A stretch of 64,000 nucleotides of DNA from Eubacteriales bacterium (GTDB taxonomy: Bacteria > Bacillota > Clostridia > Oscillospirales > CAG-272). Location: positions 210,000 through 273,999 of the forward strand of contig JAZLLY010000016.1 of the NCBI GenBank assembly GCA_045598385.1. Direction: 5' to 3'. The position numbers and the translations under genes were made by a program. How positions within the stretch are numbered: position 1 is the stretch's first letter; every line of letters begins with the position of its first letter. Below are positions 8,115 to 56,828 of this stretch, in pieces. The notes under the pieces are model-generated. The model did no database searches. It saw only the letters and a list, made by a program, of their open reading frames with translations, and was not told the DNA's origin.

Positions 8115-8149
8115 ATATGCCAAAGGCATATATCATCGCACAAAGTGCG
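8115..8149. repeat. Short hairpin array (ATATGCC-aaa-GGCATAT, ATCAT, CGCAC-aaa-GTGCG)
   Basis: Two triloop hairpins separated by ATCAT. It overlaps the 3' end of the four-helix-bundle ORF. Confidence 0.7.
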
Positions 8150-8944: not shown

Positions 8945-9028
8945 TGGTGCGGGAAACGGGAATTGAACCCGTACGGTAAAACCACACGCCCCTCAAACGT
9001 GCGCGTCTGCCAGTTCCGCCACTCCCGC
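8945..9028 (-). tRNA. tRNA-Leu (anticodon GAG), type II with long variable arm, CCA encoded
   Basis: Manual fold: acceptor GCGGGAG/TTCCCGC, anticodon loop TT-GAG-GG, T-arm ACGGG-TTCAATT-CCCGT, 84 nt. Confidence 0.85.
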
Positions 9029-9190
9029 AGGAACGTAAGGTATTATACACGAGAATGAAACGGTTGTCAAGGGCTTTTTTGAAAAAAAACGATAAACGAC
9101 AAAAAATCTTCGTCAACCTCAAAAAAGCGATCTGACGGCGACGAAAAATGGAGAAAAACGATCCCCTCCGACTTTTTTTCTTCAAACGTC

Positions 9191-9219
9191 TTGACAAAAG
9201 CCGAAAGTTCACTTATAAT
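9191..9219 (+). promoter_or_regulatory. Consensus sigma-70 promoter for tRNA-Trp
   Basis: TTGACA (9191-9196), 17-nt spacer, TATAAT (9214-9219), about 14 nt upstream of the tRNA 5' end. Confidence 0.7.
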
Positions 9220-9232
9220 ATACGGCGTATGT

Positions 9233-9308
9233 AGGGGTATAGCTCAGTTGGTAGAGTACTGGTCTCCAAAACCATGGGTCGTGGGTTCAAGTCCTTCTGC
9301 CCCTGCCA
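9233..9308 (+). tRNA. tRNA-Trp (anticodon CCA), CCA encoded
   Basis: 76 nt. Acceptor AGGGGTA/TGCCCCT and anticodon loop CT-CCA-AA. One T-T mismatch in the T-stem. Confidence 0.85.
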
Positions 9309-9310
9309 GA

Positions 9311-9341
9311 AAAAACCACTTGCGAGAGCAAGTGGTTTTTT
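9311..9341 (+). terminator. Rho-independent terminator after tRNA-Trp
   Basis: CCACTTGC-gaga-GCAAGTGG followed by TTTTTT. Confidence 0.8.
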
Positions 9342-9344
9342 CAA

Positions 9345-9480
9345 TGATATCCGTTCCTCTGCGGAACGGATGATATATGGCGAAGCCATATGATATCCGC
9401 TTACGCGGATGATATACGCCGAGAGGCGTATAAGGAACGGATATTATATCATGCCGAGCGGACGCGAGGTATATCATGCG
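9345..9480. repeat. ATGATAT-spaced hairpin array
   Basis: The units are TGATAT-CCGTTCC-tctg-CGGAACGG, ATGATAT-ATGGC-gaa-GCCAT, ATGATAT-CCGC-ttac-GCGG and ATGATAT-ACGCC-gaga-GGCGT, followed by degenerate units. Confidence 0.75.
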
Positions 9481-15000: not shown

Positions 15001-15741
15001 CTTTTCTATGCCGAAACCCACAGGAGTGAAAACGGCGAAGACGCCTCGCTTTTCGTCAGGAATCTTGAAAACGTCCAGGGTGACGAACGGGATATCATCA
15101 TCTTCTCGATCGGGTACGCCAGGAACGAAGAGGGAAAAGTCTATGCCAATTTCGGTTCCCTTTCGTCGGAGGGCGGAGAAAACCGACTTAACGTCGCCAT
15201 TACGCGCGCCAAAGAACGGGTGCTCGTGTACACGAGCGTCGATCCGGAGGAGCTCCGTGTTGAAAGCAGTAAATACCGCGGGCCGAAGCTTCTCAAACAA
15301 TATCTTATGTATGCGCGTGCCGTTTCTGCAGGCGACCTTAAGACCGTGAAAAATATACTTGACGGACTTTCGGATGAAAAACCGCAGTCTTCCCTCACGA
15401 ACGACTTTGCCCCCGAGTTCTTTATCCGCGACCGACTCAAAAAACTCGGCTACGACGCCGAACTGTCTCTCGGTGAGAAGTACAACCGTCTTTCTCTCGC
15501 CGTTTATGACAAGGACTGTGACCGCTATCTCGTCGGTGTAGAGCTCGACAGCGACGCTTTCTCCGCTTCCGATTCCGTGCTTGAGCGCGACGTTTCGAAG
15601 CCACGATTCCTCGAGTCGCGCGGATGGCGAGTGATCCGTGTCTGGAGCCGCGACGTTTGGGCTTCTCCGAAACGGGTCGTCCGCACCGTCGTGCAGGCCG
15701 CCGAAAAAGCGAAAAAACAGTATCAGGTACAAAACGATTAA
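12004..15741 (+). CDS. Superfamily-1 (Upf1-like, DUF4011-type) helicase fused to a C-terminal Vsr/DUF559-like endonuclease domain
   Basis: 1245 aa with a GTG start after GGAG. Has Walker A GPPGTGKSQT, motif II VVFDEASQI and motif VI NVAITRAKERV. The C-terminal tail (VGVELDSDAF...RDVSKPRFLESRGWRVIRVWSRDVW) is typical of PD-(D/E)xK DUF559-like modules. Confidence 0.85.
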   Translation: MGKSIYTRYKERLVEIGGKNKCLYLSRLTKNASYDLSRLLEGRKEKSEDFLRFLFSGKESYFSLIEKKDHEAIVDLCGAVPSRGKRAPDLSAETRKTVKKDTEKAVEAEILALKALKREMEDIEKETGRYELYVGYPFVFGTLSQNGKKTPVKAPLLLFPVRLEFPGDGNVEIHHYGTQKIRINPALIFSYLQARRLPSDTLQLEYDDFSDFHSVGDVLSYLSGFHIAIRPFAATGIQSFYRFKDSESAALFLHDTAVLGRFPIANSIYNDYTELEKRKLTNAAIDELLTPRAFKARQLRLKKIRAVRRKKRTETPTFAVRSMDYAQSQVVRKADESGNIVIFGPPGTGKSQTIVNIITDSLVKGKRVLVVSQKKAALDVVFNRLGDLRSKAMYISDEAKDKTSFYRRALEAHESVMGQAADTGGILAEYEELQGKIKSECHTLEEIAAIMNEKRPFGLSLSEMYRSSSMLAKGSPEYALYQRMLSHPEILTLAYKDLSEALCLIRSDDLALSYYHFMTDKEKNPVINFLRSDPDIGTLAEVKGQLTAAARSRRGYFNTAKYPYYRQVLAFYHEIEDAKKAKAIAAITAKTAGGVSRKEVLAAFRATETAMANYLKDYECLSRVLTQDGYLNVIDNILRGNTSYVRFVVDAIDNYLALQNFTKLLDTLGETELAVLNFAYAESKNDKHFSEILGLILPIRIYHEILKYEEQYREKFPTTVNFANASERISELQQRLLVLNAKAAKQSNITAYQKLFRESKESNDYLHQISKQQKYWPIRQTMEHYGKFLLTLFPCFLLSPENVSAVLPLVRNLFDVVVFDEASQIFIENTIPTIYRGKNVIVAGDDKQLRPSANFVRRYLGGDESVTDVSMQAALEVDSLLDLAVSRYDKASLSYHYRSCHSELISFSNRAFYNNCLQIAPNISKNRTISPIVYHKINGSWIDRKNVKEAAAIVAGVKDLLINRKKRETIGIITFNAEQQATIADMLEKEAQKDPAFRTLFYAETHRSENGEDASLFVRNLENVQGDERDIIIFSIGYARNEEGKVYANFGSLSSEGGENRLNVAITRAKERVLVYTSVDPEELRVESSKYRGPKLLKQYLMYARAVSAGDLKTVKNILDGLSDEKPQSSLTNDFAPEFFIRDRLKKLGYDAELSLGEKYNRLSLAVYDKDCDRYLVGVELDSDAFSASDSVLERDVSKPRFLESRGWRVIRVWSRDVWASPKRVVRTVVQAAEKAKKQYQVQND

Positions 15742-16138: not shown

Positions 16139-16214
16139 TGGTGCTCCTGCGGGAATTCGAATCCCGGACACCTTGATTAAAAGTCAAGTGCTCTACCGGC
16201 TGAGCTACAGGGGC
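16139..16214 (-). tRNA. tRNA-Lys (anticodon UUU), CCA encoded
   Basis: 76 nt. Anticodon loop CT-TTT-AA and T-arm CGGGA-TTCGAAT-TCCCG. One C-A mismatch in the acceptor stem. Confidence 0.8.
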
Positions 16215-21906: not shown

Positions 21907-21967
21907 AACCCATCCGCAATCCTGTTTTCACTTTTGTATGCAAAAAATATATATAAGGAGAACCGCA

Positions 21968-24900
21968 ATGAAAACCAAAAGACTTCTCACGATCCTCTGT
22001 CTGTTTCTCGCTCTGCTCCTCATCACCCTCTCCGGATGTTCCGTCGACGACCTCCTCGGCAAACTCGAGGTCAACGGCATTCGTGTCGAAATCTCCGAAG
22101 AACAGAGACATATCACGAAAGGAACGGCATTCGATCCCTCCGTCCTGAAGGTCATCGCGACCAATACGGACGGCACCGAAGCGGAAATTCCCGTCGCTGA
22201 CGTGACCGTATCACAGCCCGATACCGAAAACGTCGGTATCTACACCGTGACCGTCACTTACGGCAAGTTCAACACCTCATTCACTCTTTACGTGGAAGAA
22301 CCCGTCACCGTCACGAAGCTTGACCTTCAGGCACAAGACGCAAAAACCACGTATATCGTCGGTGAAGAATTCGACGATACCGGCATTACGCTCGTCGCCG
22401 AATGGAGCGACGGCAGAACCGAAACGCTGAACGCAAAAGACTGCCTTTCCGGCTTCGACACGACCGAAGCAGGCGAGATCACGCTCTCCTTTACCTACGG
22501 CGGCAAGACGAAAACACTTGACGTCGCCGTCAAAGTGCCCCTCGTGGATACCGGCATTGCTCTCAACACGGCATCCGCCAAAAAACAGTATAAACAGCAC
22601 GAAGCATTCTCCGCTTCCGGGCTCGTCGTCACCGTTACCGACAGCTGGGGGGGGTCGAGAGTTCTCGACGCCTCCGAGTACACCGTCTCCGGTGGAGATA
22701 CCGCGCTGGCAGGTGCAAAGACCGTTACCATCTCCTTCGGCGATCTGACGGCTTCTTACAGCATCAACGTCTCCGCCGCCGCGATCGAGAGTTTCTCCGT
22801 CAATCTGACCAAACTGACCGTGGAAGAAGGACAGACGCCGGATATCAGCGGTCTTCTTGTCACTCTCAAAAAGGAACTGGAAGACGCGCGCACTCTGGAC
22901 GCCTCCGAATATACCGTTTCCGGTCTTTCGGATCTTGCCCTCGGTGAGAATACCGTCACCGTCACGCTCAAAGAAGATACCGCGCACACCGCCACCTTTA
23001 CGGTCGTTGTCCGCAAGGTCAAAGACATCACGCTCGGTCTGACAGACGTCAAAACGAATTATGATCAGCACGAGGACTTCTCCGCTGCCGGTCTTTCCGT
23101 TACGGCAAACCGCACGGACGGCACGTCCTTCCCCGTTGACATCGCAGATTGTTCGATCACCGGTTACGATACTTCCGTATTCGGTACGCAGGTCGTGACC
23201 GTCACCTACAACGATCCGACGTACGGCGCGTTTTCCGCTACGTACCGTATCAACGTCGCAAAAGCCGCTATCCTCGGTATTACCGTCGATACGACAGGCG
23301 TGACGCTGGTTTACGAAAAAGGGCAGGTCGTTGATCTCTCCGGTCTTTCCGTCAAAGTCAGAAAGAAGAACGAAGACGACACCGTCCTCACCCTGGGTGC
23401 TGAAACGAACGGCTACACCCTGACGCACGAGGAATTCGGTGATTCCAAAGAATATACCGTCACCGTCACGCTCGTGGAAGATGACGATTTCAACGAGTCC
23501 TTCAAAGTCATCATCCGCGAAGTCAACGGTATTACCATCAACATCGACTCCGTCAAAAAAGTCTATAAGCAGCACGAGGACTTCTCTGCCGCCGGACTTG
23601 TCGTCACGGCAAACCGCACGGACGGCACTTCGTTTGAAGTTACCGACTACACCGTCAGCGACATTGACACCGAAATCGCCGGTCAGAAGACCGTCACCGT
23701 CAGCTACGGTGATTTCTCCAAAACCTACACCGTTACCGTCAACGCAGCTGCCATTGAGTCTTATACCGTGGACGACAGTGCCGTTACGAAATATTTTGAA
23801 AACGGTTCCGAAATCGACGTCACGACAGGTCTTGTCGTCAAGCTGAAGAAAGAACTCGAAGACGAAGTCACTCTGACCGCTGACGATTACACCGTCACTT
23901 ACACGGTAAACGGCGTCGGTGCATACACCGTCACCGTCACGCTGAAAGAAAACACGGATTATACCGATACCTTTACGATCTACGTTTTCGAACTGACCGG
24001 CATCACCCTGAACACAACTTCGGTCAAGAAAAACTATGAAGTCGGCGAAGCCGTCTCCCTTGATAATCTTCTCGTCTCTCTCAACCGCGGCGCTTTTGCC
24101 CCTGCCCTGACGCTTTCCGCACAGGATTACACCGTCGATACTTCGGCAGTCAACACGGCGTTCCCCGGCACGTATCCCGTCACCGTAAACTACGGCACGT
24201 TCTCCGCTTCTTATAACGTCGTTTATACGATGGATACCATCGCCATGACCGCGTTCGCCAATCCTGCTTTTGTCGACACTTATATCGCGGCGACTTCCGT
24301 CCCCGCTACCGCCAAAGGCGGATACGTCTCGAATAACATCGTTTTCCGCGTCGGAGACGATAACGGTTTTGTCTTCAAACCGATCGCCAAGGCAAGAGAC
24401 GAAGGCGGTACCATTTACACCGTACAGACTTACGAAACCGCGTTTGAACTCTACGAGGGTGAAACGAAACTCGAGGGTGCCGCGCTTTCCGCCGTCGTTT
24501 CGTACAATCCCGCGACTTACACCTACGACTTTACCGAAGCCGCCATCGGACGCAGTTTCACGCTGATTGTATCCGCGATCAACACGACGGAAACGCTGGC
24601 ACCGTTATCCTTCACTTTCATGGTCGTTGACGGCTGGAACGTCTATACCGCTGCCGATCTTTCCCGTATGGCAAACACCAACTGGAACATCAGTCCCTCG
24701 GATACGGCGCCGGCATATAATGAAAAAACCGTCTGGGACGCCTATAAACTCGCGCACGGCGTCGTAAAAGCGGACGGCACCGTTGACGATACGCCGATCT
24801 CCGGCATCGTCCTGCAGAACAGTCTCGTCCTGACGGACGCGGATCTTCCCGCCGGATTCTTTGTCACCGCGGAAGAAGACGTAACCGGACTTGCCGTCGG

Positions 24901-26107
24901 TCACCTCAAGGACTGGACCTACACCTACCATCATCAGCTTGCGGACGGTGAAACGTTCGGCATCTACGGCAACGGTTTCGCGATCGATATCAGCGCTATC
25001 TCTTCCGTATATGATGGCGCAAGTCACCAGTGGGGTTACGGTTCCGATTACTCCAACTGTGATATCTTCAAATTCGAGGGCAATAACGTCGAAAACTATA
25101 ACAATACCAATCCCAACACCGTCGGAAACGCTTCCGTCATCATGCAGGATATCACGATCAAAGGCAACGCGATGCGTACCAACGATCTGGAAGAATTGAT
25201 CCCCGACCTCGGCGGTATGATCGGTATCAAGTTTACCAACTGTAATGCCGAACTCAACAACGCGATCATCACCCGTTCCTTTATCGGTCTTATGGGCGAT
25301 TATCACTCGATCATCGACCTTGACGGCGTCAAGATTTATGATTCTCTGCAGGACGCAATGTTCATGTGGGGCAGCACGACTATCAACGTGGAAAACAGCA
25401 TTATGACTGGTGCCGGCGGTCCTCTGATCATCATGCAGCACGTGGATCCTGACAAAGACACCGTCGGAAACCGTATTCCTACCCTGAACGTCGATGCTGC
25501 TTCTCAACTCGACAATCCCGTCTACGGTGGTGAAGCATGGTTCATAAACAACGGTGCAGAACTCTACGCACAACAAATCATTATGCTCGACAATGCACTT
25601 GCTACGGCGGCAGCCGGATTTAACGGTGGACTCTCCACGTATTCCCTGCCCACCTTTACAAGAAAAACGATTGCGACCACCACAAACAATATTAAATACC
25701 TGAATCTCGTTGACCTGATGATGTCCAACGGTGTCAGTGTCAGCACTGCTACGAGCGGAGCCCAAGGCAAAACCACCATCGGTGATGTCCTCGTCACAAC
25801 GACGATGGCAAACGAAAGAGTCACGAATCTCCGTGCTCTGCTTGCCTCTATTCCTGATATCGGTCAGGATGTCGCCGCACAAGTCATCATCCTCGAGAAC
25901 AGCAACGGATCCCTCGCCTGGACCGATGGAGAAAATCTCTATATGGTCACCGCGACCAATCCCGCAATGTCTCTTACAGACTTTGTCACCGCCGAAAAAG
26001 ATGACTACGATGAATACGGTGATCCGATCGACACCTCCTTCTTCACGGAGGGTGATTATCTCACCGTCCATGCCTTCGGTATGGCAGTCGTCCTCAAGTA
26101 CAACTGA
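21968..26107 (+). CDS. Large surface lipoprotein: about ten bacterial Ig-like (Big_3-type) repeats plus a C-terminal beta-helix-like domain
   Basis: Lipobox LITLSGC after MKTKRLL. Modules of about 75-80 aa recur and end in ...YTVTVTYG.F..S(F/Y).(I/L).V. The ATG at 21968 follows AAGGAG. Confidence 0.8.
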   Translation: MKTKRLLTILCLFLALLLITLSGCSVDDLLGKLEVNGIRVEISEEQRHITKGTAFDPSVLKVIATNTDGTEAEIPVADVTVSQPDTENVGIYTVTVTYGKFNTSFTLYVEEPVTVTKLDLQAQDAKTTYIVGEEFDDTGITLVAEWSDGRTETLNAKDCLSGFDTTEAGEITLSFTYGGKTKTLDVAVKVPLVDTGIALNTASAKKQYKQHEAFSASGLVVTVTDSWGGSRVLDASEYTVSGGDTALAGAKTVTISFGDLTASYSINVSAAAIESFSVNLTKLTVEEGQTPDISGLLVTLKKELEDARTLDASEYTVSGLSDLALGENTVTVTLKEDTAHTATFTVVVRKVKDITLGLTDVKTNYDQHEDFSAAGLSVTANRTDGTSFPVDIADCSITGYDTSVFGTQVVTVTYNDPTYGAFSATYRINVAKAAILGITVDTTGVTLVYEKGQVVDLSGLSVKVRKKNEDDTVLTLGAETNGYTLTHEEFGDSKEYTVTVTLVEDDDFNESFKVIIREVNGITINIDSVKKVYKQHEDFSAAGLVVTANRTDGTSFEVTDYTVSDIDTEIAGQKTVTVSYGDFSKTYTVTVNAAAIESYTVDDSAVTKYFENGSEIDVTTGLVVKLKKELEDEVTLTADDYTVTYTVNGVGAYTVTVTLKENTDYTDTFTIYVFELTGITLNTTSVKKNYEVGEAVSLDNLLVSLNRGAFAPALTLSAQDYTVDTSAVNTAFPGTYPVTVNYGTFSASYNVVYTMDTIAMTAFANPAFVDTYIAATSVPATAKGGYVSNNIVFRVGDDNGFVFKPIAKARDEGGTIYTVQTYETAFELYEGETKLEGAALSAVVSYNPATYTYDFTEAAIGRSFTLIVSAINTTETLAPLSFTFMVVDGWNVYTAADLSRMANTNWNISPSDTAPAYNEKTVWDAYKLAHGVVKADGTVDDTPISGIVLQNSLVLTDADLPAGFFVTAEEDVTGLAVGHLKDWTYTYHHQLADGETFGIYGNGFAIDISAISSVYDGASHQWGYGSDYSNCDIFKFEGNNVENYNNTNPNTVGNASVIMQDITIKGNAMRTNDLEELIPDLGGMIGIKFTNCNAELNNAIITRSFIGLMGDYHSIIDLDGVKIYDSLQDAMFMWGSTTINVENSIMTGAGGPLIIMQHVDPDKDTVGNRIPTLNVDAASQLDNPVYGGEAWFINNGAELYAQQIIMLDNALATAAAGFNGGLSTYSLPTFTRKTIATTTNNIKYLNLVDLMMSNGVSVSTATSGAQGKTTIGDVLVTTTMANERVTNLRALLASIPDIGQDVAAQVIILENSNGSLAWTDGENLYMVTATNPAMSLTDFVTAEKDDYDEYGDPIDTSFFTEGDYLTVHAFGMAVVLKYN

Positions 26108-38239: not shown

Positions 38240-38261
38240 CCCGGAACGCAAACCATAACTT

Positions 38262-38470
38262 TTCGCTTCGCGAAAATCATAACTGCGCCAAAGGCACATC
38301 ATAACTTTGCGGCAAAGCCGCAAATCATAACTCTTCCTAAAATCCGCGCTTCGCGCGATATGGAATCTACGCGAAGCGTAGCATGGAATCCGCACAAAGT
38401 GCGGTATGGAATCCGGAATGGAATCCGGTATGGCATCCGTTGCAAGGCGGTATGAAGTCCGCCGCCGGCA
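38262..38470. repeat. Hairpin array: CATAACT-spaced units followed by (T)ATGGAATC-spaced units
   Basis: CATAACT precedes each of TTTTCGC-ttc-GCGAAAA, GCGCC-aaa-GGCAC and TTGCGG-caaa-GCCGCAA. ATGGAATC precedes CTACGC-gaa-GCGTAG, CCGCAC-aaa-GTGCGG and further units. The array lies in the 3' UTR position of the LRR gene. Confidence 0.8.
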
Positions 38471-38478
38471 TTTGCAGA

Positions 38479-41400
38479 TTATTTGCTGATATCCCCGTCG
38501 GAACAGTGAATCTTGTAAGAACTGGTATTGTAATTGTAAATCCATCTTGATCCCTTTGAGATCGCGTTCCACTGCGCCTTTGTTCCGGTGAAAGTGATGC
38601 TTGCAAGCCCACTGCAATCGTAGAACGCCCAATCGCCGATGCTCGTGACGCTCGACGGGATCGTGATGCTTGTAAGCCCACTGCAACCGGAGAACGCATA
38701 AGTGCCGATGCTCGTGACGCTCGACGGGATCGTGATGCTTGTAAGTCTTGTGCAATACCAGAACGCATCCATAGTGATGCCTTTAGTCCCGTCACGAAGC
38801 GTGACATTAATCAAAGCAGTATCGCAGCCGATCACCCATGTATCTACATAAGAAACGCCATCGACGGTTTCGATACAGGGACAACCGTAGAACGCATAAC
38901 CGCCGATGCTCGTTACGCTCGACGGGATCGTGATGCTCGTCAGACTCGAGCAACGGGAGAACGCATAACTGCCGATGCTCGTGACGCTATCCGGAATCGT
39001 AACGCTCGTCAGGTTCGTGCAATTCTCGAACGCATAACTGCCGATGCCCTTAACGCTCGACGGGATCGTGATGCTTGTCAGGCTCGAGCAATCATAGAAC
39101 GCATAATTGCCGATGCTCGTGACGCTCGACGGGATCGTGATACTCGTCAGTTTCGAGCAATAATAGAACGCATACTGATAGATCTCATAATTCTTTCCGC
39201 TCGGGGACTTTTCGGGAAGTATCAGATCGGTTTGTGTTCCCTTGTAACCAATAAGATAACTGTTCGTTCCGTCTTCATAGAAGAGATAACCGTCTTCTTC
39301 GGAAAGATAGGTTTCGCTCCCGTCGGTGATGATACGTTTGGCGTAATAACCGACGTCGCCGTTAGATGAACTTCCGGCGGTGATCGTAAGCGACGAATGG
39401 TTGCGGACCTCGATCAGTTTGTAACAACCGTAGAACGCTTCACTGCCGATGCTCGTGACGCTCGACGGGATCGTGATGCTCGTAAGACCTCTGCAACCGG
39501 AGAACGCATAATAGCCGATGCTCGTGACGCTCGACGGGATCGTGATGCTTGTAAGACCGCTGCAACCCTCGAACGCCGAATCGCCGATGCTCGTGACTCT
39601 ATCCGGGATCGTGATGCTCGTCAGACTCGAGCAACTGCAAAACGCCTGAGCGCCGATGCTCTTGACGCTCGACGGGATCGTGACGCTTGTCAGGCTCGTG
39701 CAATCCCGGAACGCATAATCGCCGATGCTTGTGACGCCCTCGGGAATCACAAGATCCGTGATCAAAACGTTATTGAGATAGAGATAATGTGCATACTCTA
39801 AAGGATTCGCACCCCAATTACCAAAGGATATGCCGCACCATTTGGCAAGATCCGTGATATATACCGCGCTCAAGTTCCAACAACCTTCAAACGCATTATC
39901 GCCGACGGCTGTGACGCCGGACGACATAGTGATACTCGTCACATTGGTACGGAAATAAAATGCGTAGTCATAGATTTTGTAAGTTTTTCCGCTAGGAGAA
40001 ACATCGGGGAGTATCAGGTCGGTTTCGCTGTCTTCATAATTCAGAAGAAAACTGTCAGTCCCGTCTTCATAAAAGATATAGTCGCCAACTGATGAGATAA
40101 AACTGTCGCCTTCATCGGTAATAATACGTTTAGCATAATATCCGACGCCTCCGTTGTCGGGGCTTCCGGCAACAATGTCAAGGGACGAAAGATTGCATAC
40201 TTCGATCAGTTTGTAGCAACCGGAGAAAGCCCCCTCACCGATGCTCTTGATACAAGCGGGAATCGTGATATGGGTAATTGAACTGAAAACGAACGCGCCC
40301 ATGGCGATACTCGTTACGCTTCCGTCATCGGGGATCACGCCGCAACATCCCCCGGCGATCAAAGTTTTGCTCGCGGTTTCGATCAGACAATTACCGGCAC
40401 TGTGATAAACCGTATTGCCGGGATCGACCGTGAAGTCCAAAAGACCGGGACAGAAATAAAACGCTAATTCTTCGATCTGCTCAACGTTTTTCGGAATCGT
40501 GATATGCGATAGACCGTAACATTCACCGAATGCCGCGAATCCGATGCTCGTGACGCTTTCCGGAATTGTGAAAGACGTAAGATCGTGGCAGCAGTAAAAC
40601 GCGCCTCCACCTATGATCGTGCATTGACTGTTTTTGGCAAAGGTGACGCTTTTTAGTCCCTCACAATCCGAAAAAGCTTGCTCGCCGATGATTCTGACAC
40701 TCGACGGGATCGTAACGCTCTTCAGGGTTTCATCCTGATCAAAAGCAAACGCTTCGTCGGCGATTTCAACGACGCCCTCGGGAATATCAATATCTGTCAA
40801 AGTTTTTCCGTAATCCGTCAGTCCCATAACGACGGTTTTCGTCTCGTCAAAAATGAAAACGTCAAAGATGCTGACGGCCCGGAAAGTGGCAGTATAAGTT
40901 GCATTTCCGGTAACGGCTGAAAGCGGCTTGTCCCAGCCCGAAAAGACGAACATGGTTTCTCCGTCCGTCGGCTTTGTCGGCGTATTTCCGTCATAGGAGG
41001 GGACATCTCCCGTTTTCAGGGAATCCGTCTTCAGTACGGTGCCGTCGTAGTTTTTCCACGCGACGGTATAACTTTTGTTGTCCTTTTTATTCTTCGTGTA
41101 ATGCGCCTTGTAGGTCACGTCGTGATTGACCGGCGAAAACGTCGGCGTCCAGCCGGAAAACGTATAGAAGAACTTGTCTTCCGCGGCTCTCTGCGGCTCC
41201 GCCCCTTTATAAGACGGCATCTCGCCCTCTTTTACCGTTTCCGTCATCAGCAAGGTGCCGTCAAAATCTTCCCACGTGACGGTATAGGTGTTGACGTCTT
41301 CTTTTTCGGTAATGCCTAATTTTTCTCCGATCTCATCGAAAAGGTCGGATATCCCGACTTTGTCCCCGATGCCTTGGAAAAGACCGGTGATTTGCCCGGA

Positions 41401-41487
41401 TTCCGCATCGCACGCTGAAAATGCAAAAAGCACCGTCAGAAGCGACAATGCCAGCAAAAAGATTTTGAGCGCGGTTTTCTTAAACAT
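38479..41487 (-). CDS. Surface lipoprotein: N-terminal Listeria-Bacteroides (Flg_new/InlB B-type) repeats plus many BspA-type leucine-rich repeats
   Basis: Lipobox LFAFSAC. Repeats of the form YTVTWEDFDGT...FSGWTP. More than 15 units of about 23 aa resemble LTSITIPSSVTSIGxYAFxxCSS. The ATG at 41487 follows GGAG. The DNA carries matching repeats of about 70 bp. Confidence 0.85.
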   Translation of the reverse strand: MFKKTALKIFLLALSLLTVLFAFSACDAESGQITGLFQGIGDKVGISDLFDEIGEKLGITEKEDVNTYTVTWEDFDGTLLMTETVKEGEMPSYKGAEPQRAAEDKFFYTFSGWTPTFSPVNHDVTYKAHYTKNKKDNKSYTVAWKNYDGTVLKTDSLKTGDVPSYDGNTPTKPTDGETMFVFSGWDKPLSAVTGNATYTATFRAVSIFDVFIFDETKTVVMGLTDYGKTLTDIDIPEGVVEIADEAFAFDQDETLKSVTIPSSVRIIGEQAFSDCEGLKSVTFAKNSQCTIIGGGAFYCCHDLTSFTIPESVTSIGFAAFGECYGLSHITIPKNVEQIEELAFYFCPGLLDFTVDPGNTVYHSAGNCLIETASKTLIAGGCCGVIPDDGSVTSIAMGAFVFSSITHITIPACIKSIGEGAFSGCYKLIEVCNLSSLDIVAGSPDNGGVGYYAKRIITDEGDSFISSVGDYIFYEDGTDSFLLNYEDSETDLILPDVSPSGKTYKIYDYAFYFRTNVTSITMSSGVTAVGDNAFEGCWNLSAVYITDLAKWCGISFGNWGANPLEYAHYLYLNNVLITDLVIPEGVTSIGDYAFRDCTSLTSVTIPSSVKSIGAQAFCSCSSLTSITIPDRVTSIGDSAFEGCSGLTSITIPSSVTSIGYYAFSGCRGLTSITIPSSVTSIGSEAFYGCYKLIEVRNHSSLTITAGSSSNGDVGYYAKRIITDGSETYLSEEDGYLFYEDGTNSYLIGYKGTQTDLILPEKSPSGKNYEIYQYAFYYCSKLTSITIPSSVTSIGNYAFYDCSSLTSITIPSSVKGIGSYAFENCTNLTSVTIPDSVTSIGSYAFSRCSSLTSITIPSSVTSIGGYAFYGCPCIETVDGVSYVDTWVIGCDTALINVTLRDGTKGITMDAFWYCTRLTSITIPSSVTSIGTYAFSGCSGLTSITIPSSVTSIGDWAFYDCSGLASITFTGTKAQWNAISKGSRWIYNYNTSSYKIHCSDGDISK

Positions 41488-41532
41488 ATGTTTCTCCTTT
41501 GGCTTTCGCCGTCGTCTTATTTTGTCCACTTA

Positions 41533-41707
41533 TTGTGAAAATAGGTGAACAATAATACGATTTTATCATATCACGCGCGCGGAAAATTGTCAATGATAAT
41601 TTTATTTTACGCTAATCCAAATATATTTTTAGAAAAATGCTTCCTTTACGTCCTTTTTTTCGTTTATCCCGCGAAAAATGCCCGTTTTTGTTCACCTATT
41701 TTCACAA
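41533..41707. promoter_or_regulatory. Invertible-promoter-like element (inverton candidate), promoter currently facing the LRR lipoprotein gene (ON)
   Basis: Perfect 20-bp inverted repeats: TTGTGAAAATAGGTGAACAA (41533-41552) and TTGTTCACCTATTTTCACAA (41688-41707). They flank 135 bp. The insert carries, on the minus strand, TTGACA (41593-41588), a 17-nt spacer and TGaTATGAT (-10 at 41570-41565). Confidence 0.65.
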
Positions 41708-41750
41708 CAGATGAACATTTCCGGGGCGGTTTTTTAGATCCCGGGAAGCA

Positions 41751-41790
41751 AAAAGGGAAAAGAACGGACGTTCTCTTCCCTTTAATTTTT
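41751..41790. terminator. Terminator insulating the 41.5-kb switch from upstream nfnAB transcription
   Basis: GGGAAAAGAAC-ggac-GTTCTCTTCCC with A/T runs on both sides. On the minus strand it is followed by TTTTTGC. Confidence 0.65.
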
Positions 41791-41820
41791 GTATTGTTTT
41801 TTTACAATTTCCGCCATCGC

Positions 41821-41947
41821 CGCCTCGCTCTGCGAGCGAACGATGCGTTTCGCACACGAAACGCATCTCATAACTTTGCGGCAGCGCCGCAAATCATAAC
41901 TGTGCCGTAGGTACACCATAACTTGCCCGAAGGGCAATCATAACTGA
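41821..41947. repeat. CATAACT-spaced hairpin array (same orientation as 38262-38335)
   Basis: Starts with CGCTC-tgc-GAGCG and ATGCGTTTCG-caca-CGAAACGCAT. Then CATAACT precedes each of TTGCGG-cagc-GCCGCAA, GTGCC-gta-GGTAC and TGCCC-gaa-GGGCA. Confidence 0.8.
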
Positions 41948-41979: not shown

Positions 41980-42047
41980 GCGCAAAAAGCGCACGTTTTC
42001 AAACGCAAAAAGCGCACGTTTTCAAACGCAATAAGCGCGCGTTTTAC
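41980..42047. repeat. 23-bp tandem direct repeat x3 abutting the nfnB-like stop codon
   Basis: GCGCAAAAAGCGCACGTTTTCAA / ACGCAAAAAGCGCACGTTTTCAA / ACGCAATAAGCGCGCGTTTTAC. Confidence 0.8.
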
Positions 42048-43453
42048 TTTAAGAACTCATTGATCGCCTTTGCAGCCACCTTCCCCGCTCCCATCGCGGA
42101 GATGACAGTCGCGGCGCCCGTCACGGCGTCGCCGCCGGCGTAAACGCCGTCTTTGGTGGTTTTTCCGGTCTCTTCTTCTACGATGATACCGCCGTGACGG
42201 TTTACGTCAAGCCCTGCGGTCGTGGATTTGATCAGCGGGTTCGGGGACGTGCCGATCGCGATAATGACGGTATCGGCGTCCAGCACGAATTCACTACCCT
42301 CAACGGGAACGGGACGGCGGCGTCCGCGCTCGTCCGGCTCGCCGAGTTCCATACGGATACAGCGAAGACCGACGACACATCCGTTCATCGGATCGCGGGG
42401 ATCGTCCTTATTCTCGTAGCCGAGGACTTCGGTCGGATTGTTCAGAAGCAGGAATCTGACGCCCTCCTCCATCGCGTGTTCGACCTCCTCTTTTCTCGCG
42501 GGGAGTTCCTCCATGGAACGGCGATAAACGATCGACACCGATTCGGCACCGAGGCGAAGCGCCGTTCTCGCGGCGTCCATCGCGACGTTTCCGCCTCCGA
42601 CGACCACGACGTTCCCGCCTTTTTTGATCGGGGTTTCGGCATCGTCTTTATACGCGCCCATGAGGTTGCTTCTCGTCAGAAATTCGTTGGCGGAATACAC
42701 GCCTTTCAGACTTTCTCCGGGGATATTCATGAAGTTCGGAAGTCCGGCGCCGGAGCCGATGAACACGGCTTCATAACCCATGCCGAAGAGTTCGTCGATC
42801 GTCAGCGTTTTTCCGATGATCATATTCGTGGCAATTTCCACGCCGAGTTTTTCGAGATTTTCGACTTCTTTCGCGACGATCGCTTTCGGAAGACGAAACT
42901 CGGGGATGCCGTAAACGAGAACGCCGCCGGCTTTGTGAAGTGCCTCAAAGACCGTGACGCTGTGCCCTGCTCTGGCGAGATCGCCGGCGCAGGTAAGTCC
43001 GGAGGGACCGGAGCCGATCACGGCAACTTTATGTCCCGTTTTTTCGGGGAGCGTAACGCTCGACGTATCGTGAGAATTATGGTAATCGGCGACGAAACGT
43101 TCAAGACGTCCGATGCCGACGGGCTCGCCCTTGATCCCTCTGACGCAACGGGATTCGCATTGTGTTTCCTGCGGGCAGACGCGTCCGCAGACTGCGGGGA
43201 GCGACGAGGACTGTAAAATGACGCGGTAAGCACCCTCAAAATCGCACTCTTTGATTTTTGCGATGAATTCGGGAATACGGATATTGACGGGGCAACCGCC
43301 GACACAAGGCATATTCTTGCAGGACAGGCAGCGGAGCGCTTCGTCAACCGCCGTCGCCTCATCGTAACCGATAGCGACTTCCGAGAAATTGCGGGCGCGG
43401 ACCTTCGGATCCTGCGTCGGCATCGGATTCTTTTTGAGACTCATATTCGGCAT
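42044..43453 (-). CDS. NADPH-dependent glutamate synthase small-subunit-like oxidoreductase (NfnB/GltD family)
   Basis: 469 aa. N-terminal Fe-S Cys clusters (CLSCKNMPC..GCP; CGRVCPQETQCESRC) and two Rossmann motifs (VAVIGSGPSGL; VVVVGGGNVAMD). Confidence 0.85.
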   Translation of the reverse strand: MPNMSLKKNPMPTQDPKVRARNFSEVAIGYDEATAVDEALRCLSCKNMPCVGGCPVNIRIPEFIAKIKECDFEGAYRVILQSSSLPAVCGRVCPQETQCESRCVRGIKGEPVGIGRLERFVADYHNSHDTSSVTLPEKTGHKVAVIGSGPSGLTCAGDLARAGHSVTVFEALHKAGGVLVYGIPEFRLPKAIVAKEVENLEKLGVEIATNMIIGKTLTIDELFGMGYEAVFIGSGAGLPNFMNIPGESLKGVYSANEFLTRSNLMGAYKDDAETPIKKGGNVVVVGGGNVAMDAARTALRLGAESVSIVYRRSMEELPARKEEVEHAMEEGVRFLLLNNPTEVLGYENKDDPRDPMNGCVVGLRCIRMELGEPDERGRRRPVPVEGSEFVLDADTVIIAIGTSPNPLIKSTTAGLDVNRHGGIIVEEETGKTTKDGVYAGGDAVTGAATVISAMGAGKVAAKAINEFLK

Positions 43454-51514: not shown

Positions 51515-54500
51515 TTATCCGATCTCGGAAACGGTCCATACGCCGTTATCCGTATCTTCAACGGACTGATAATTTTCATCGAAAAGGTAAGAAGTCAGGT
51601 CGTCGGTATTCGGGCCTGCCGGGTTGAAGCCGTGGAAGGTACCGCCTTTGACTTTGATGCTTGCGTTTGCTTCATCGCCATTCTTGATATTCAGTACCCA
51701 ATACCGACCGTTGTATTTCGCATCACTGCTGAACTCACCGCCTTCGATCACGATCTGTCCGACTTTTAGCGCGTAGATCGTCGAATTTCCTTTTCCTCCG
51801 TTATCAGCGCCGACGGTGAAGGTTCCACCTTTAATCGTAACGGTACCGTTCTCTACGCTAACTGCTTTGCTGTCATATCCGTTCTTTCCTGTAAACGTTC
51901 CGCCGGAGATCGTAATCTTCATCTTCTCATTGAACGTCGTGGGATTCACCGTGTCGATGACCGTCAAGGCATAAATGCCGGTGAACGAGCCACCGCTGAT
52001 CGTTACATTGATCTCACAAGCGGTTGTATGCTGTGAAATAGCAAGGGCGGCGCCTTTAACGGTCGTTCCGTTTCCGTTTGCAGTTGCGCTGTATTCCGTA
52101 GCATTGGAAACAAGGGATCCGCCGGTGATATTCACCGTTCCCGCTCTGACTTCCACGGGAGTGGGCGCCGTGATGGTTCCACCGGAAATATTCAGCGTTC
52201 CGTCCTGCGGATGATAAATACCAGTTCCCGCAGAAGTGATGGAACCGCCGGTCACGTTGATCATCGTTCCCCAATACGCTTCCGAACCGTTACCGACGAT
52301 ACCGTAAGCCGCCGTCGTCGTAATGGTGGCTGCCGTCGTCAGAGTCGGTTTTGTATCCGTAACGATGGAAATGGCATCGACGACGGAATCAATTATGAAC
52401 GTATCTTCCAACGTCACGTTACCCTGCTTCACATAAATCGCCGCATAAGCGTCAGAATTCGTGACTTTCAGCGTGCCGTTTCTTATGGTTAACGTCATAT
52501 TTCTTCCAACGCAAATGGCGCCAACGTCACCGGATTTTGTCGAAGTGATCGTATGACCGTTCAAATCCAAAATAACATTCTTTACCAATACAGTGAATGT
52601 AATTTGAGAATTGACGGTAACGTCATCTAACAGTTTCCAAGTACCGTCTGAAGCCATAGAAGTGATGGAATCTTTATAAGTTGTCGTTTCGCCATTGGTA
52701 ACCGAAGCAATCGCTTTTTTGACCGTAAGCGTTCCATTGGCAAAAGTAATGTCATAGTTTGCCGCTTCCAGTCCGGAGACCGTAATGACGTAAGTTCCGG
52801 CAACATTCTGTGTTTTGTCATAATCGCCAAAACCATAAACGGCATCTCCGGTCAGAACGGTTTTGGTTTCACCGTTGACAAATCCCGTTGCGGTATAGGC
52901 GCCGCTCGGGGTGTTTCCGGCAACAATGGTTTTTTTGGATGCCGCTACGGTGAGAGGTGCTTTTGCTATGACAAAATCAAAGGTCAAGTCGTCGGAAGAT
53001 CCGTCGTCCCATGCATAATTGGTTTTGTCTTTGAGGGCAACGGTAATGACACTCGTGCCCGCACCGGTCTTCGTTAAATCACCGGTAATGGTATAAAGGA
53101 GGTCATTTGCCGCAAGCGTATAGGTCTGTTCCAGACCGGTGTACGTAAACTCCGTTGTGTCTGCGTTCGGTTTAGCGACTTTGATCGGGGTTTCAGCTTC
53201 TTCCTTCACGCCACAACCTTCGCGCTGACAAACGCGAGACTTTTTACCATGTGCCTCGTAGGTTGCATCAACGTCGATCGTCCAGTCACCAAAATCATGA
53301 CCGAGTTTCGATCCGGTATCGACTACGGTGTCGGGTTCGGTACAATTGTCGTTGTCGCACTTTGCAGTCTTGGTACCGTCATTCAAACAGGTCGCGTCAT
53401 TGTTAGATTCGTAATTTGTGAAAGAGTGTCCGAGTTTCGAGCCGGTATTGACTACGGTGTCGGTTGCGGTACAATTGTCGCACGTTGCAGTCTTGGTACC
53501 GTCAGCCGTGCAGGTCGCGTTACCGTCGGAGACATAAGTCGTGAACGAGTGATCAAGCGCGGGGATTTCTTCCGTTTCTTCATATCCGCAGGCACAAACG
53601 TGTTTTTTAAGTCCTTTGGTCGTGCAGGTCGCGGGAGTCACGGGTTCCCATGCGCTAAAGGTATGCTCGGCTTTACCGGCGAGCACGCCATGTCCGCAGG
53701 TATCGGCGTGCCAGTGGTAGGTCTCGTTACACGTCCAATCTTCCGAATAGGTGTGGTCGGTCTTTTCGGTTTCGCGCGTCTCTTCATATCCGCAGACGAT
53801 GCAAGAACGTTCTTGCAGTCCTTTAGTCGAGCAGGTCGCTTCTTTTCCTTCCACGTCAGTCCACTTGCCGAACATGTGATTGCCAACATCGGCAAACACG
53901 TAATCACCGCAGGTCGCGGCACGCCAGTGCTGCTCTTCGTTGGACGACCATTCTTCGTCGTAGGTATGAGCACCCTCTTTTACTTCGCCGGACGCGAAGG
54001 TCTCGGTGCCTTTCGCTCCGCAGACGCAGGAGTAGTAATACTGCGCTTTCGCGGAGCAGGTCGCTTCGCTCGCCAGATAAACTTCGGTTGCTACTTCTTG
54101 ATCGTAGGTATGATCGAGCACCGGGATCACAGTCACATCGGTGACTTCGTCACAACCCTCACGCAGACAATGGTGAGATTTCGAGCCCGCGGTCTTGCAG
54201 GTTGCTTCGGTATCAATCGTCCAAATGTCAGAGTAGTTGTGATCGAGTGCGTCGATATCCTGTGTTTCTTCGTATCCGCAGACGGCGCACACATGTTTTT
54301 CGCTGCCCTTTTCGGTGCAGTTGGGTTCATTTACGGTCTCCCAATCGCCGTATTCGTGTCCGAGTTCGTCGATCACAGTCACATCGGTGACTTCATCACA
54401 ACCGTCGCGCAGACAATGGCGGGATTTCGAGCCCGCGGTCGTGCAGGTCGCGGGAAGATCAATCTTGAATTCCGACGAGAAGTTATGATCAAGCGCGTCG

Positions 54501-56404
54501 ATATCGCGCGTTTCTTGATATCCGCAGACGACACAAGCACGGACCTGCGTTCCTTTGTCCTCACAGGTTGCGGGAGTCTCGGTAGTCCAAAGCCCGAACG
54601 TATGCCCGTCTTTATCGGCGACCCCGCCATGTCCGCAGATAGCGGCGTGATAATGCTCGTTTTCGTTATAAGTCCACTCTTCCGAATAGGTGTGGTCGGT
54701 CTTTTCGGTTTTGCGCGTCTCTTCATATCCGCAGACGATGCAAGAACGTTTTTGCTCTCCCTCATTCGAGCAGGTCGCTTCTTTTCCTTCCACGTCAGTC
54801 CACTTGCTGAACGTGTGAGCGGATTCACCCGAGATCTCCGTTACATGCTCACAGGAAGCGTCGTGCCAGTGGTGGGTCTCGTTATACGTCCAATCTTCCG
54901 AATAGGTGTGGTCGGTCTTTTCGGTTTCGCGCGTTTCTTTATATCCGCAGACGCGGCAAGAACGTTCTTGCAGTCCTTTAGTCGAGCAGGTCGCTTCTTT
55001 TCCTTCCACGTCAGTCCACAAACCGAAAATATGCTCGGTTTTGCTCGTGATAAGTTCGATATGTCCGCAGGTCGCGGCGTGCCAATGCTCGGTATCGTTA
55101 CACGTCCATTCTTCTGAAAATGCATGGTCGATCATTTCGACTTCGCGCGTTTCTTCATACCCGCAGACGGTGCAAAGACGGTGTTCAACACCTTTCTTTG
55201 AGCAGGTCGGAGCCGTGACGGTCGTCCAGTCGCCGAAGGTGTGGACACCTTTATCCACGAAAAGATCGGTATGCTCGCAGGTAGCGGCGTGCCAATGCTC
55301 GGTTTTGCTGGACGACCACGTTTCGGCATACGTATGGTCGATCATATCCATATCGCGGGTTTCTTCGTATCCGCAGGCGGTGCAAAGACGGTGCTCGAGC
55401 CCTTTGCTTGCGCAAGTCGGAGCCGTCACAGTCTCCCATTCGCCGAACGTATGTTCCGCTTTATCCGCGAAAAGATCGGTATGCTCGCAGGTAGCGGCGT
55501 GCCAATGCTCGGTCTCATCATACGTCCAGGTTTCGGCGTACGTATGGTCGATCATATCCATTTCGCGGGTTTTTTCATATCCGCAAACCGTGCAAAAACT
55601 ATGCTCGACGCCTTTGCTTCCGCAAGTCGGAGCCGTCACAGTCTCCCACGTTTCGAAAATGTGTTCCGCTTTATCCGCGATGAGGTAGGAATGTTCGCAA
55701 GTGGCAAAGCGCAGATGCTCGGTTTCACTGTACATCCACGTATCGGAGTACGTATGCGGAAGCATTTCGATCTCACGCGTTCCTTCGTATCCGCAAACGG
55801 TGCAATAACTGTGTTCAAGTCCTTTGCTTCCGCAAGTCGGTTCGGTCACAGTCTCCCATTCGCCGAACGTATGTTCCTCTTTATCCGCGAAAAGATCGGT
55901 ATGCCCGCAGGTCGCAGCGTGCCAATGCTCGGTTTCGCTGGACGACCACGTTTTGGCGTAAGTGTGCGCCAATTTACTCGTCTGTCTGGTTTCTTCCAAT
56001 CCGCAGACGGTACAAACGCGGTGTTCAAGACCTTTTTCTCCGCAGGTCGCGGCCGTCACGGTTTCCCATGCACCGAAAGTGTGCACGTTATGCTCCGGGA
56101 CAAATTTCGCATATACCTTTATGCTTTTTGTGAAAGTTTCGTCGGCGAGAGAATCTGCTGAAAAGGGCGATTCCCACGTACCTTCGTCAAGGTACCAACC
56201 GTCAAAAGTATAGCCGTCTTTGACGGGATCCGCCATAATTTCGATTGTTTCATTTCCGCTTGTCCTGATGATATCGCGGACTTCTCCGTCCACGACAAAT
56301 TCGATCGCGTATTCCACTTTTCCGCACGCGGCAAAAGCAAAAATCGCAATCAGACAAGACAAAGTCAGCGCAAGGATCTTTCCAATGTTCTTTTTCATGC
56401 TCAA
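51515..56404 (-). CDS. Giant surface lipoprotein: Flg_new-type repeat, about 12-13 Cys/His-rich modules, MBG-like domain and C-terminal beta-helix-like repeats
   Basis: 1629 aa. Lipobox IFAFAAC. One YAIEFVVDG...GYTFDGWY repeat. Modules of about 57-70 aa follow the pattern H-TFG-W..V..ATC..KG.....C.VCGYEETR....DHTY...W....T.HWH..TC.H. It also contains an APLTV...NYDITF..GTLTV segment. GGAGG lies 8 nt before the ATG. Confidence 0.85.
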   Translation of the reverse strand: MSMKKNIGKILALTLSCLIAIFAFAACGKVEYAIEFVVDGEVRDIIRTSGNETIEIMADPVKDGYTFDGWYLDEGTWESPFSADSLADETFTKSIKVYAKFVPEHNVHTFGAWETVTAATCGEKGLEHRVCTVCGLEETRQTSKLAHTYAKTWSSSETEHWHAATCGHTDLFADKEEHTFGEWETVTEPTCGSKGLEHSYCTVCGYEGTREIEMLPHTYSDTWMYSETEHLRFATCEHSYLIADKAEHIFETWETVTAPTCGSKGVEHSFCTVCGYEKTREMDMIDHTYAETWTYDETEHWHAATCEHTDLFADKAEHTFGEWETVTAPTCASKGLEHRLCTACGYEETRDMDMIDHTYAETWSSSKTEHWHAATCEHTDLFVDKGVHTFGDWTTVTAPTCSKKGVEHRLCTVCGYEETREVEMIDHAFSEEWTCNDTEHWHAATCGHIELITSKTEHIFGLWTDVEGKEATCSTKGLQERSCRVCGYKETRETEKTDHTYSEDWTYNETHHWHDASCEHVTEISGESAHTFSKWTDVEGKEATCSNEGEQKRSCIVCGYEETRKTEKTDHTYSEEWTYNENEHYHAAICGHGGVADKDGHTFGLWTTETPATCEDKGTQVRACVVCGYQETRDIDALDHNFSSEFKIDLPATCTTAGSKSRHCLRDGCDEVTDVTVIDELGHEYGDWETVNEPNCTEKGSEKHVCAVCGYEETQDIDALDHNYSDIWTIDTEATCKTAGSKSHHCLREGCDEVTDVTVIPVLDHTYDQEVATEVYLASEATCSAKAQYYYSCVCGAKGTETFASGEVKEGAHTYDEEWSSNEEQHWRAATCGDYVFADVGNHMFGKWTDVEGKEATCSTKGLQERSCIVCGYEETRETEKTDHTYSEDWTCNETYHWHADTCGHGVLAGKAEHTFSAWEPVTPATCTTKGLKKHVCACGYEETEEIPALDHSFTTYVSDGNATCTADGTKTATCDNCTATDTVVNTGSKLGHSFTNYESNNDATCLNDGTKTAKCDNDNCTEPDTVVDTGSKLGHDFGDWTIDVDATYEAHGKKSRVCQREGCGVKEEAETPIKVAKPNADTTEFTYTGLEQTYTLAANDLLYTITGDLTKTGAGTSVITVALKDKTNYAWDDGSSDDLTFDFVIAKAPLTVAASKKTIVAGNTPSGAYTATGFVNGETKTVLTGDAVYGFGDYDKTQNVAGTYVITVSGLEAANYDITFANGTLTVKKAIASVTNGETTTYKDSITSMASDGTWKLLDDVTVNSQITFTVLVKNVILDLNGHTITSTKSGDVGAICVGRNMTLTIRNGTLKVTNSDAYAAIYVKQGNVTLEDTFIIDSVVDAISIVTDTKPTLTTAATITTTAAYGIVGNGSEAYWGTMINVTGGSITSAGTGIYHPQDGTLNISGGTITAPTPVEVRAGTVNITGGSLVSNATEYSATANGNGTTVKGAALAISQHTTACEINVTISGGSFTGIYALTVIDTVNPTTFNEKMKITISGGTFTGKNGYDSKAVSVENGTVTIKGGTFTVGADNGGKGNSTIYALKVGQIVIEGGEFSSDAKYNGRYWVLNIKNGDEANASIKVKGGTFHGFNPAGPNTDDLTSYLFDENYQSVEDTDNGVWTVSEIG

Positions 56405-56445
56405 AACCTCCGACCTTATTTTTTATCAAATTAAGTTCATATACT

Positions 56446-56611
56446 ATGGTAATAGATGAACAAACAAGTCGCATTAACGCCAAAATGGGCGTATCATATA
56501 AGCGAAAAACATAGCGGAAGAAAAAAATTACTCTTCCTATCATATTTATATTGACAAGTTTTTTCGATTATGATATCATGTTTATATCATAACGTTCATC
56601 TATTACCATAA
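56446..56611. promoter_or_regulatory. Invertible-promoter-like element (inverton candidate), promoter currently facing away from the giant lipoprotein gene (OFF)
   Basis: Perfect 17-bp inverted repeats: TATGGTAATAGATGAAC (56446-56462) and GTTCATCTATTACCATA (56595-56611). They flank 132 bp. The insert carries, on the plus strand, TTGACA (56552-56557), a 17-nt spacer and TGaTATCAT (-10 at 56575-56580). Confidence 0.65.
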
Positions 56612-56641
56612 TAGGCGGATTTTTTGCATAGTCGAAAATAC

Positions 56642-56675
56642 AAAAGGAAACAGGAAAAAACTGTTTCCTTTTTTT
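56642..56675. terminator. Bidirectional terminator on the distal side of the 56.5-kb switch
   Basis: AAAGGAAACAG-gaaaaaa-CTGTTTCCTTT followed by TTTT. On the minus strand the hairpin is also followed by TTTTGTATTTT. Confidence 0.7.
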
Positions 56676-56679
56676 GAGC

Positions 56680-56828
56680 GCGGCGACTTCACCTTTGAGG
56701 TCAACGGCGCCGCGTTCCAGCGGCTCGAAAAAGAGGCGAAAACGGCGTATTTCGCCTACGCCCTCCCGGCGCAAACAGGAAAGACGCTCATCGAAAAAAT
56801 AGAAAAATACAAAGAAAAAAGACAATAA
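56680..56828 (+). pseudogene. Orphan 3' fragment (last ~49 codons) of the sugar phosphate isomerase gene
   Basis: It encodes GDFTFEVNGAAFQRLEKEAKTAYFAYALPAQTGKTLIEKIEKYKEKRQ-stop, nearly identical to the end of 50482-51384. There is no upstream coding sequence or start codon. Confidence 0.85.

Follow-up and report, generated by a model that had tools for sequence, protein, structure and literature searches.

The question raised by this locus is whether the promoter of a large lipoprotein gene, lying between two inverted repeats, is fixed in place or can be turned around. The window (the whole stretch of DNA analysed here, 64,000 nt) comes from an uncultured spore-forming member of the Clostridia in which cotJABC is present. 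A sequence-only reading had recognised at this position the layout of a recombinase-driven phase-variation switch, assembled in the ON orientation upstream of a BspA-type leucine-rich repeat (LRR) lipoprotein gene, and that proposal is strongly supported by the anatomy of the region together with a second, apparently flipped element at 56434-56621. It is likely that region 41523-41717 is a functional promoter inverton, with this element (element 1) assembled ON and the second (element 2) assembled OFF. The parts of element 1, apart from its repeat sites, are as follows.

41523-41717: element 1, candidate promoter inverton, whole region
41553-41687, minus strand: putative invertible interior of element 1, 135 bp, with the promoter inside and facing the LRR gene as assembled (ON)
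41488-41522, minus strand: leader of element 1, from proximal site to start codon, 35 nt, with the ribosome-binding site AAGGAG
41752-41783, no strand assigned: hairpin terminator beyond the distal site of element 1, a 14-bp hairpin
38479-41487, minus strand: target gene of element 1, a BspA-type LRR lipoprotein of 1002 aa

The 20-mer TTGTGAAAATAGGTGAACAA has two exact copies in the window, at 41533-41552 (plus strand) and 41688-41707 (minus strand), where 0.01 matches would be expected; the perfect 20-bp inverted repeats enclosing 135 bp that had been claimed are thus exact. The arm pair can be lengthened to 33 nt with 85% complementarity, with 135 nt between the perfect arms. Among inverted repeats with a spacing of 30-1500 nt, this is the longest perfect one in the 64-kb window, and in 100 Markov-2 shuffles the longest inverted repeat at the same spacing measured 12-17 nt, with 18 never attained. 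Given these shuffle maxima and the expectation for the 20-mer, the repeat is far beyond chance, which counts in favor of an inverton.

Within the repeats, the minus strand carries, as the sequence-only reading had described, TTGACA (41593-41588), a 17-nt spacer, and TGaTATGAT (41573-41565); the promoter scores 11/12 and has the extended -10 TG. The -10 had been placed 13 nt from the proximal repeat and about 80 nt from the start codon; the measured distances are 12 nt to the 20-bp arm, 13 nt to the 29-bp site described below, and 77 nt to the ATG (A at 41487). A consensus scan of the element's other strand and of its leader found no comparable promoter, in agreement with the view that this one is the only obvious driver of the gene. 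The terminator expected at 41751-41790 was recovered as the hairpin at 41752-41783, which on the minus strand folds with -19.2 kcal/mol and is followed by UUUUU, and on the plus strand folds with -15.9 to -17.7 kcal/mol and is followed by UUUAAUUUUUG, a weaker T-rich tail. Its proposed role is to insulate the switch from read-through from nfnAB, and the genes upstream of element 1 are indeed NfnB-like and NfnA-like. The identity of the target likewise stood: the protein has six LRR_5 (BspA-type) stretches (E 1.2e-153) and the lipobox LFAFSAC. It is a singleton in the protein collection, its closest relative sharing 40% identity. Also as foreseen, mechanical ORF calling lists a 121-aa frame at 41545-41910; automated annotation would miss both switches, calling spurious ORFs over them. 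Rfam gave no match at either switch, ruling out a known riboswitch or small RNA as the explanation. Long-range RNA pairing of the two arms of element 1 was also ruled out, the distal arm being upstream of the promoter and so untranscribed when ON.

A window-wide scan for inverted repeats returned one structure comparable to element 1, namely element 2 at 56434-56621. The two elements lie 15 kb apart, are the only such elements in the window, and are each directly upstream of a large lipoprotein gene. The parts of element 2 are listed here, again apart from the repeat sites.

56462-56593, plus strand: putative invertible interior of element 2, 132 bp, with the promoter pointing away from the gene (OFF)
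56642-56672, no strand assigned: bidirectional terminator of element 2, beyond the distal site, identified by hairpin folding
51515-56398, minus strand: target gene of element 2, a giant lipoprotein of 1627 aa, directly downstream

The arms of element 2 (56442-56461 and 56594-56613) are 19/20 identical, with 17 bp perfect and 132 nt between them. Its promoter, on the plus strand, consists of TTGACA at 56551-56556, a 17-nt spacer, and the extended -10 TGaTATCAT at 56571-56579, again 11/12. The terminator folds on the plus strand with -19.6 kcal/mol, followed by UUUUUUU, and on the minus strand with -17.4 kcal/mol, followed by UUUUGUAUUUU. Only 60 nt separate promoter and terminator, and as assembled the promoter fires straight at it. 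Beyond the terminator there is no plus-strand gene, only a startless 50-codon frame and then the convergent tsf. This frame (56676-56825, plus strand), which is coding-like, ends in ...DFTFEVNGAAFQRLEKEAKTAYFAYALPAQTGKTLIEKIEKYKEKRQ*, and lies between the element 2 terminator and a second terminator, has no start codon and no Pfam match; it may be a gene remnant left by insertion of the cassette.

The 1627-aa lipoprotein contains a Listeria-Bacteroides repeat, an MBG domain, and many Cys-rich modules. It too is a singleton in the protein collection, with closest relatives at 32% identity. Its tandem Cys-rich modules, T/ACxxKG...CxVCGYEETR, match the zinc-ribbon profile Ribosomal_L32p, pointing to a series of zinc-ribbon-like domains outside the cell.

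The two elements are related to each other in a specific way. A colinear alignment is obtained between the minus strand of element 1 and the plus strand of element 2, with the -35 and -10 hexamers in matching columns. The global alignment of the interiors, which are about 60% identical, scores 14.5 in this arrangement against -1.5 +/- 4.1 (maximum 9.5) for shuffles, whereas element 1 interior (minus) against the minus strand of element 2 scores -0.5. If element 2 is flipped on paper, the geometry of element 1 is reproduced to the nucleotide: -10, 13 nt, 29-bp site, 35 nt, ATG. Element 1 is called ON and element 2 OFF because the promoter faces the LRR gene in the one and away from the 1627-aa gene in the other. 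That the promoters are meaningful is indicated by their frequency, with 11 near-consensus extended -10 promoters found in the window against 0.36 expected and 10 of these 11 followed, at no more than 260 nt, by an ORF preceded by a ribosome-binding site or by a tRNA; they are therefore genuine signals in this genome. Only the element 2 promoter lacks such a target. Were it fixed, its aim at a terminator would be senseless; as an invertible promoter caught in the OFF state, it is understandable. Promoters opposed across a paralogous pair are the pattern expected of an invertible-promoter family caught both ON and OFF, and the comparison of the two elements supports this reading. Counted against active switching is the fact that, with two elements only, opposite orientations could record a single ancient inversion.

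The repeat arms of both elements are contained in longer sites with a common plan, given here with the score of each palindrome.

41523-41551, plus strand: proximal 29-bp imperfect palindrome of element 1, TGTCCACTTATT-GTGAA-AATAGGTGAACA, 11/14, containing arm 41533-41552
41689-41717, minus strand: distal 29-bp imperfect palindrome of element 1, TGTTCATCTGTT-GTGAA-AATAGGTGAACA, 11/14, containing arm 41688-41707
56434-56462, plus strand: proximal 29-bp site of element 2, AGTTCATATACT-ATGGT-AATAGATGAACA, 10/14, containing arm 56442-56461
56593-56621, minus strand: distal 29-bp site of element 2, AATCCGCCTATT-ATGGT-AATAGATGAACG, 8/14, containing arm 56594-56613

The half-site TGTTCAYCTATT is common to all eight half-sites of these four palindromes, and in the window the 29-bp palindrome pattern matches these four sites only (6 strand matches, with an expectation of 0.82). 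At the 5-nt centre, both sites of element 1 read GTGAA and both of element 2 read ATGGT; the centres are asymmetric, inverted between partner sites, and unlike between elements. Where the 20-bp arms of one element depart from those of the other (positions 3, 6, 7, and 13), the partner arm in each case carries the mirrored change, as is expected if the arms must remain identical for strand exchange. Conserved half-sites around a crossover that is matched between partners and otherwise free to vary have the shape of a recombinase core site, and the 29-bp palindromes are putative sites of this kind. Their odd-length geometry, 11-7-11 or 12-5-12, suggests a tyrosine recombinase, and the difference between the centres of the two elements would prevent recombination of one switch with the other.

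The same palindromes might instead be operators of a dimeric transcription factor that bracket the promoter in a static regulatory region, acting for example through looping repression and never flipping. Each arm does form an imperfect palindrome with a common half-site consensus, as an operator would, and regulators can work in trans, fitting the absence of a nearby recombinase. Operators, however, have no need of perfect identity over 20 bp, asymmetric centre included, in strict inversion, and the differences between the elements, clustered in the centre with the same bases in both arms, are better suited to a crossover region than to a protein-contact surface. Moreover, a fixed element 2 promoter would face a terminator and have nothing to transcribe. 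An operator function without inversion is, on balance, highly improbable.

Both target genes lie in DNA that the nearest relatives lack. The best named relatives of the NfnB protein are annotated as Clostridia, Oscillospiraceae, and Christensenellales MAGs. The nearest genomes, with NfnB at 90% identity and DNA at about 81%, have the backbone gene order in common with the window. In them, after nfnB come first a small AAA_18 gene and next an M23 peptidase gene, and tsf abuts an AP-endonuclease gene; in a relative with NfnB at 84% identity, the M23 peptidase gene comes directly after nfnB. Both cassettes are absent from these genomes at 90% and 84% (L004-L007, L012), which also have no half-site pairs. 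From the gene order of the relatives, both cassettes, each composed of terminator, switch, and lipoprotein gene, are lineage-specific insertions among housekeeping genes. Surface lipoproteins in lineage-specific insertions are typical cargo of phase variation, and this counts for the inverton reading.

Inserted DNA also invites comparison with mobile elements. On this account the two structures would be MITE-like, promoter-carrying elements comparable to Correia elements, two old non-autonomous insertions that face opposite ways by accident and do not invert. Such an origin would suit the presence of two copies that end in inverted repeats and carry an outward-facing promoter, their location within lineage-specific inserted DNA, and the absence of a nearby recombinase in the 64-kb window. 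Yet neither element has a target-site duplication, and instead of multiple near-identical dispersed copies there are no further copies in the 64 kb or in any collection searched. The interiors are about as diverged as stated above and the arms are identical at 20/20 and 19/20 with mirrored differences, unlike old decayed copies; both are placed identically, to the nucleotide, with respect to the start codon (35 nt) and a flanking terminator, which random insertion would not produce; and the copy at element 2 would be without function. We consider a pair of inert insertions very unlikely.

The search for relatives of the switches beyond the window was largely negative. Exact look-ups of the LRR protein (with two alternative starts) and of NfnB gave no record in another assembly. 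The exact 20-mer, searched in genome and metagenome contigs, gave three single-copy chance matches only (a Chryseobacterium MAG, a Fusobacteriaceae MAG, and one metagenome contig), and this counts against an inverton. The degenerate full-site pattern had no match in viral contigs, and distant-mode BLAST of the switch against plasmids and phages had none either. Upstream of homologues of the target proteins (L008-L011, L013, L014) no related switch was found, only ordinary promoters, which again counts against the inverton reading.

A further point on that side is the recombinase. No plausible ORF in the 64-kb window encodes a Phage_integrase or Resolvase domain, so that a recombinase would have to act in trans. 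The missing enzyme would also be explained if both structures were fossils, once invertible switches, one of them turned around at some earlier time, whose recombinase has been lost, leaving the LRR gene locked ON and the 1627-aa gene locked OFF. The distal site of element 2, where the outer half-site is degenerate (8/14), is in keeping with this idea, and element 2 could be decaying. The arms nevertheless still match at 20/20 and 19/20 positions, and the silenced 4.9-kb gene has kept its reading frame intact, which argues against long-term locking in the OFF state; loss of switching in both elements is accordingly rated as very improbable. Very probably, both elements are promoter invertons, a device of known kind, and are driven by a recombinase encoded at an unlinked locus. 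What was found at both is a short segment bounded by inverted repeats, with arms that form core-like sites, an embedded one-way promoter (recognised by its match to the consensus), and a target gene of the usual type.

The following model would account for these features. The 135-bp segment would carry the sole strong promoter for the LRR lipoprotein gene, and the two 29-bp core sites that bound it in inverted orientation, in each of which two TGTTCAYCTATT half-sites enclose an asymmetric centre of 5-7 bp, would be acted upon by a site-specific recombinase encoded elsewhere in the genome. Strand exchange, which we infer to occur within the identical centres, would flip the segment. In the assembled orientation, the promoter of element 1 would read through the proximal site and the 35-nt leader into the LRR gene (ON). 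Once inverted, it would be directed at the flanking terminator, which also shields the LRR gene from nfnAB, and that gene would then not be expressed (OFF). Element 2 (56434-56621) would be a member of the same switch family that controls the second giant lipoprotein gene and was assembled OFF. With the unlike centres GTGAA and ATGGT, one enzyme could run both switches without cross-recombination.

Several known systems resemble this arrangement. The fimS switch of E. coli, which controls type 1 fimbriae, is run by the tyrosine recombinases FimB and FimE; its 9-bp repeats are flanked by recombinase half-sites, and the recombinase genes adjoin the switch. Similar to fimS, the present locus has a short segment, predicted to be invertible, with a promoter for an adjoining surface-structure gene that would be ON or OFF according to orientation, and it has inverted repeats with half-sites. 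The fimS switch is 314 bp in length (PMC5903667), whereas the segment here has 135 bp, its 20-bp repeats lie inside 29-bp palindromes, and no recombinase is encoded for at least 20 kb on either side.

The C. difficile switches, among them cwpV/Cdi1 and flgB/Cdi4, are likewise short segments upstream of surface or motility genes in a host of the class Clostridia, with the recombinase encoded elsewhere. The cwpV and flgB switches act after transcription initiation (by terminator formation and Rho-dependent termination), the promoter lying outside the segment. Here, in contrast, the promoter is inside, and inversion, which is proven in C. difficile, is deduced from architecture; the comparison is one of architecture and not of repeat sequence. 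In C. difficile a single unlinked tyrosine recombinase, RecV, serves several Cdi switches, with Cdi2 and Cdi5 having the same repeats (PMC5903667).

Elements 1 and 2 also resemble the promoter invertons of gut bacteria in forming a family with a common repeat motif and an embedded promoter, upstream of surface genes. Promoter invertons of this group include the Bacteroides capsule promoters inverted by Mpi and groups in Clostridia linked to tyrosine recombinases. Within one genome, gut invertons have been described as families with common repeat and embedded promoter motifs; they precede surface-related genes, and assemblies contain them in one orientation or the other (PMC11892184, PMC11602134). 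For the TGTTCAYCTATT half-site consensus no matching sequence was found in the supplements of the gut-community inverton study, and no report of BspA-type LRR genes as inverton targets in Clostridia was found in the literature.

The serine invertases Hin, Gin, and Cin offer another precedent. Their invertible segment measures about 1-3 kb, contains a Fis-bound enhancer, and has the invertase gene inside or adjoining it; the 26-bp sites have a 2-bp centre. The likeness lies in crossover sites that are imperfect palindromes and, inverted relative to each other, enclose a segment controlling the expression of a surface protein. The present elements differ in the features that define that type, as element 1 is a geneless segment of 135 bp, the window encodes no Resolvase domain, and the 29-bp sites are odd-centred.

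A broader interpretation, which we put forward tentatively and rate as somewhat short of an even chance when all of its parts are taken together, is that the pair belongs to a previously undescribed inverton family of an uncultured Clostridia lineage, with sites of the form TGTTCAYCTATT-N5-AATAGRTGAACA and one unlinked recombinase. In such a family, the private asymmetric centre of each switch would stop recombination between switches. The cassettes would be plug-in units, each made up of a bidirectional terminator, the switch, a giant lipoprotein gene, and terminal hairpins, and placed between housekeeping genes. The set of switches might then give a combinatorial ON/OFF display of large adhesin-like proteins. 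BspA-type LRR proteins are implicated in adhesion in other bacteria. If the switches do flip, the organism phase-varies at least two very large surface lipoproteins independently, which bears on surface variation of uncultured gut Clostridia under immune or phage pressure. The pair of elements also gives a testable site definition, half-site consensus plus element-specific centres, for finding the cognate recombinase and further switches.

Several other features of the window were observed. On either side of the LRR cassette (41860-41944 and 38240-38331, minus strand) stands an array of four short hairpins; the two arrays are direct copies with about 75% identity, and in them the stems are variable and the separating word GTTATGR is constant. 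A further hairpin array, with the word GATTCCAT, lies downstream of the LRR gene at 38345-38425, and within the window the two words cluster almost solely around the LRR cassette. The arrays might mark the boundaries of the cassette, serve as insulators or terminators, or represent a small repeat family that has escaped recognition. From the nfnB stop codon downstream, at 41981-42049, a 23-bp unit, CGCAAAAAGCGCACGTTTTCAAA, is present three times in tandem, and each unit folds as a small hairpin.

A third large surface protein, of 1389 aa with seven Big_3 domains, is encoded at 21938-26107 (plus strand) inside an ABC-transporter cluster; in contrast to the two lipoprotein genes, this gene is not preceded by an inverted-repeat switch. 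Region 8948-9420 contains a Gut-1 RNA (RF01706) at 9342-9420 (plus strand), adjoining two divergent tRNAs that each have a 12/12 consensus promoter. A gene for a 23S-rRNA-intervening-sequence protein lies at 8133-8528, and a third tRNA at 16142-16214. Adjoining a tRNA gene, the frame at 12004-15741 (plus strand) encodes a protein of 1245 aa with DUF4011, superfamily-1 helicase domains (AAA_11/AAA_12), and a C-terminal MTES_1575/DUF559 nuclease-like domain, which, judged by these domains, could be a helicase-nuclease of the defence or repair type.
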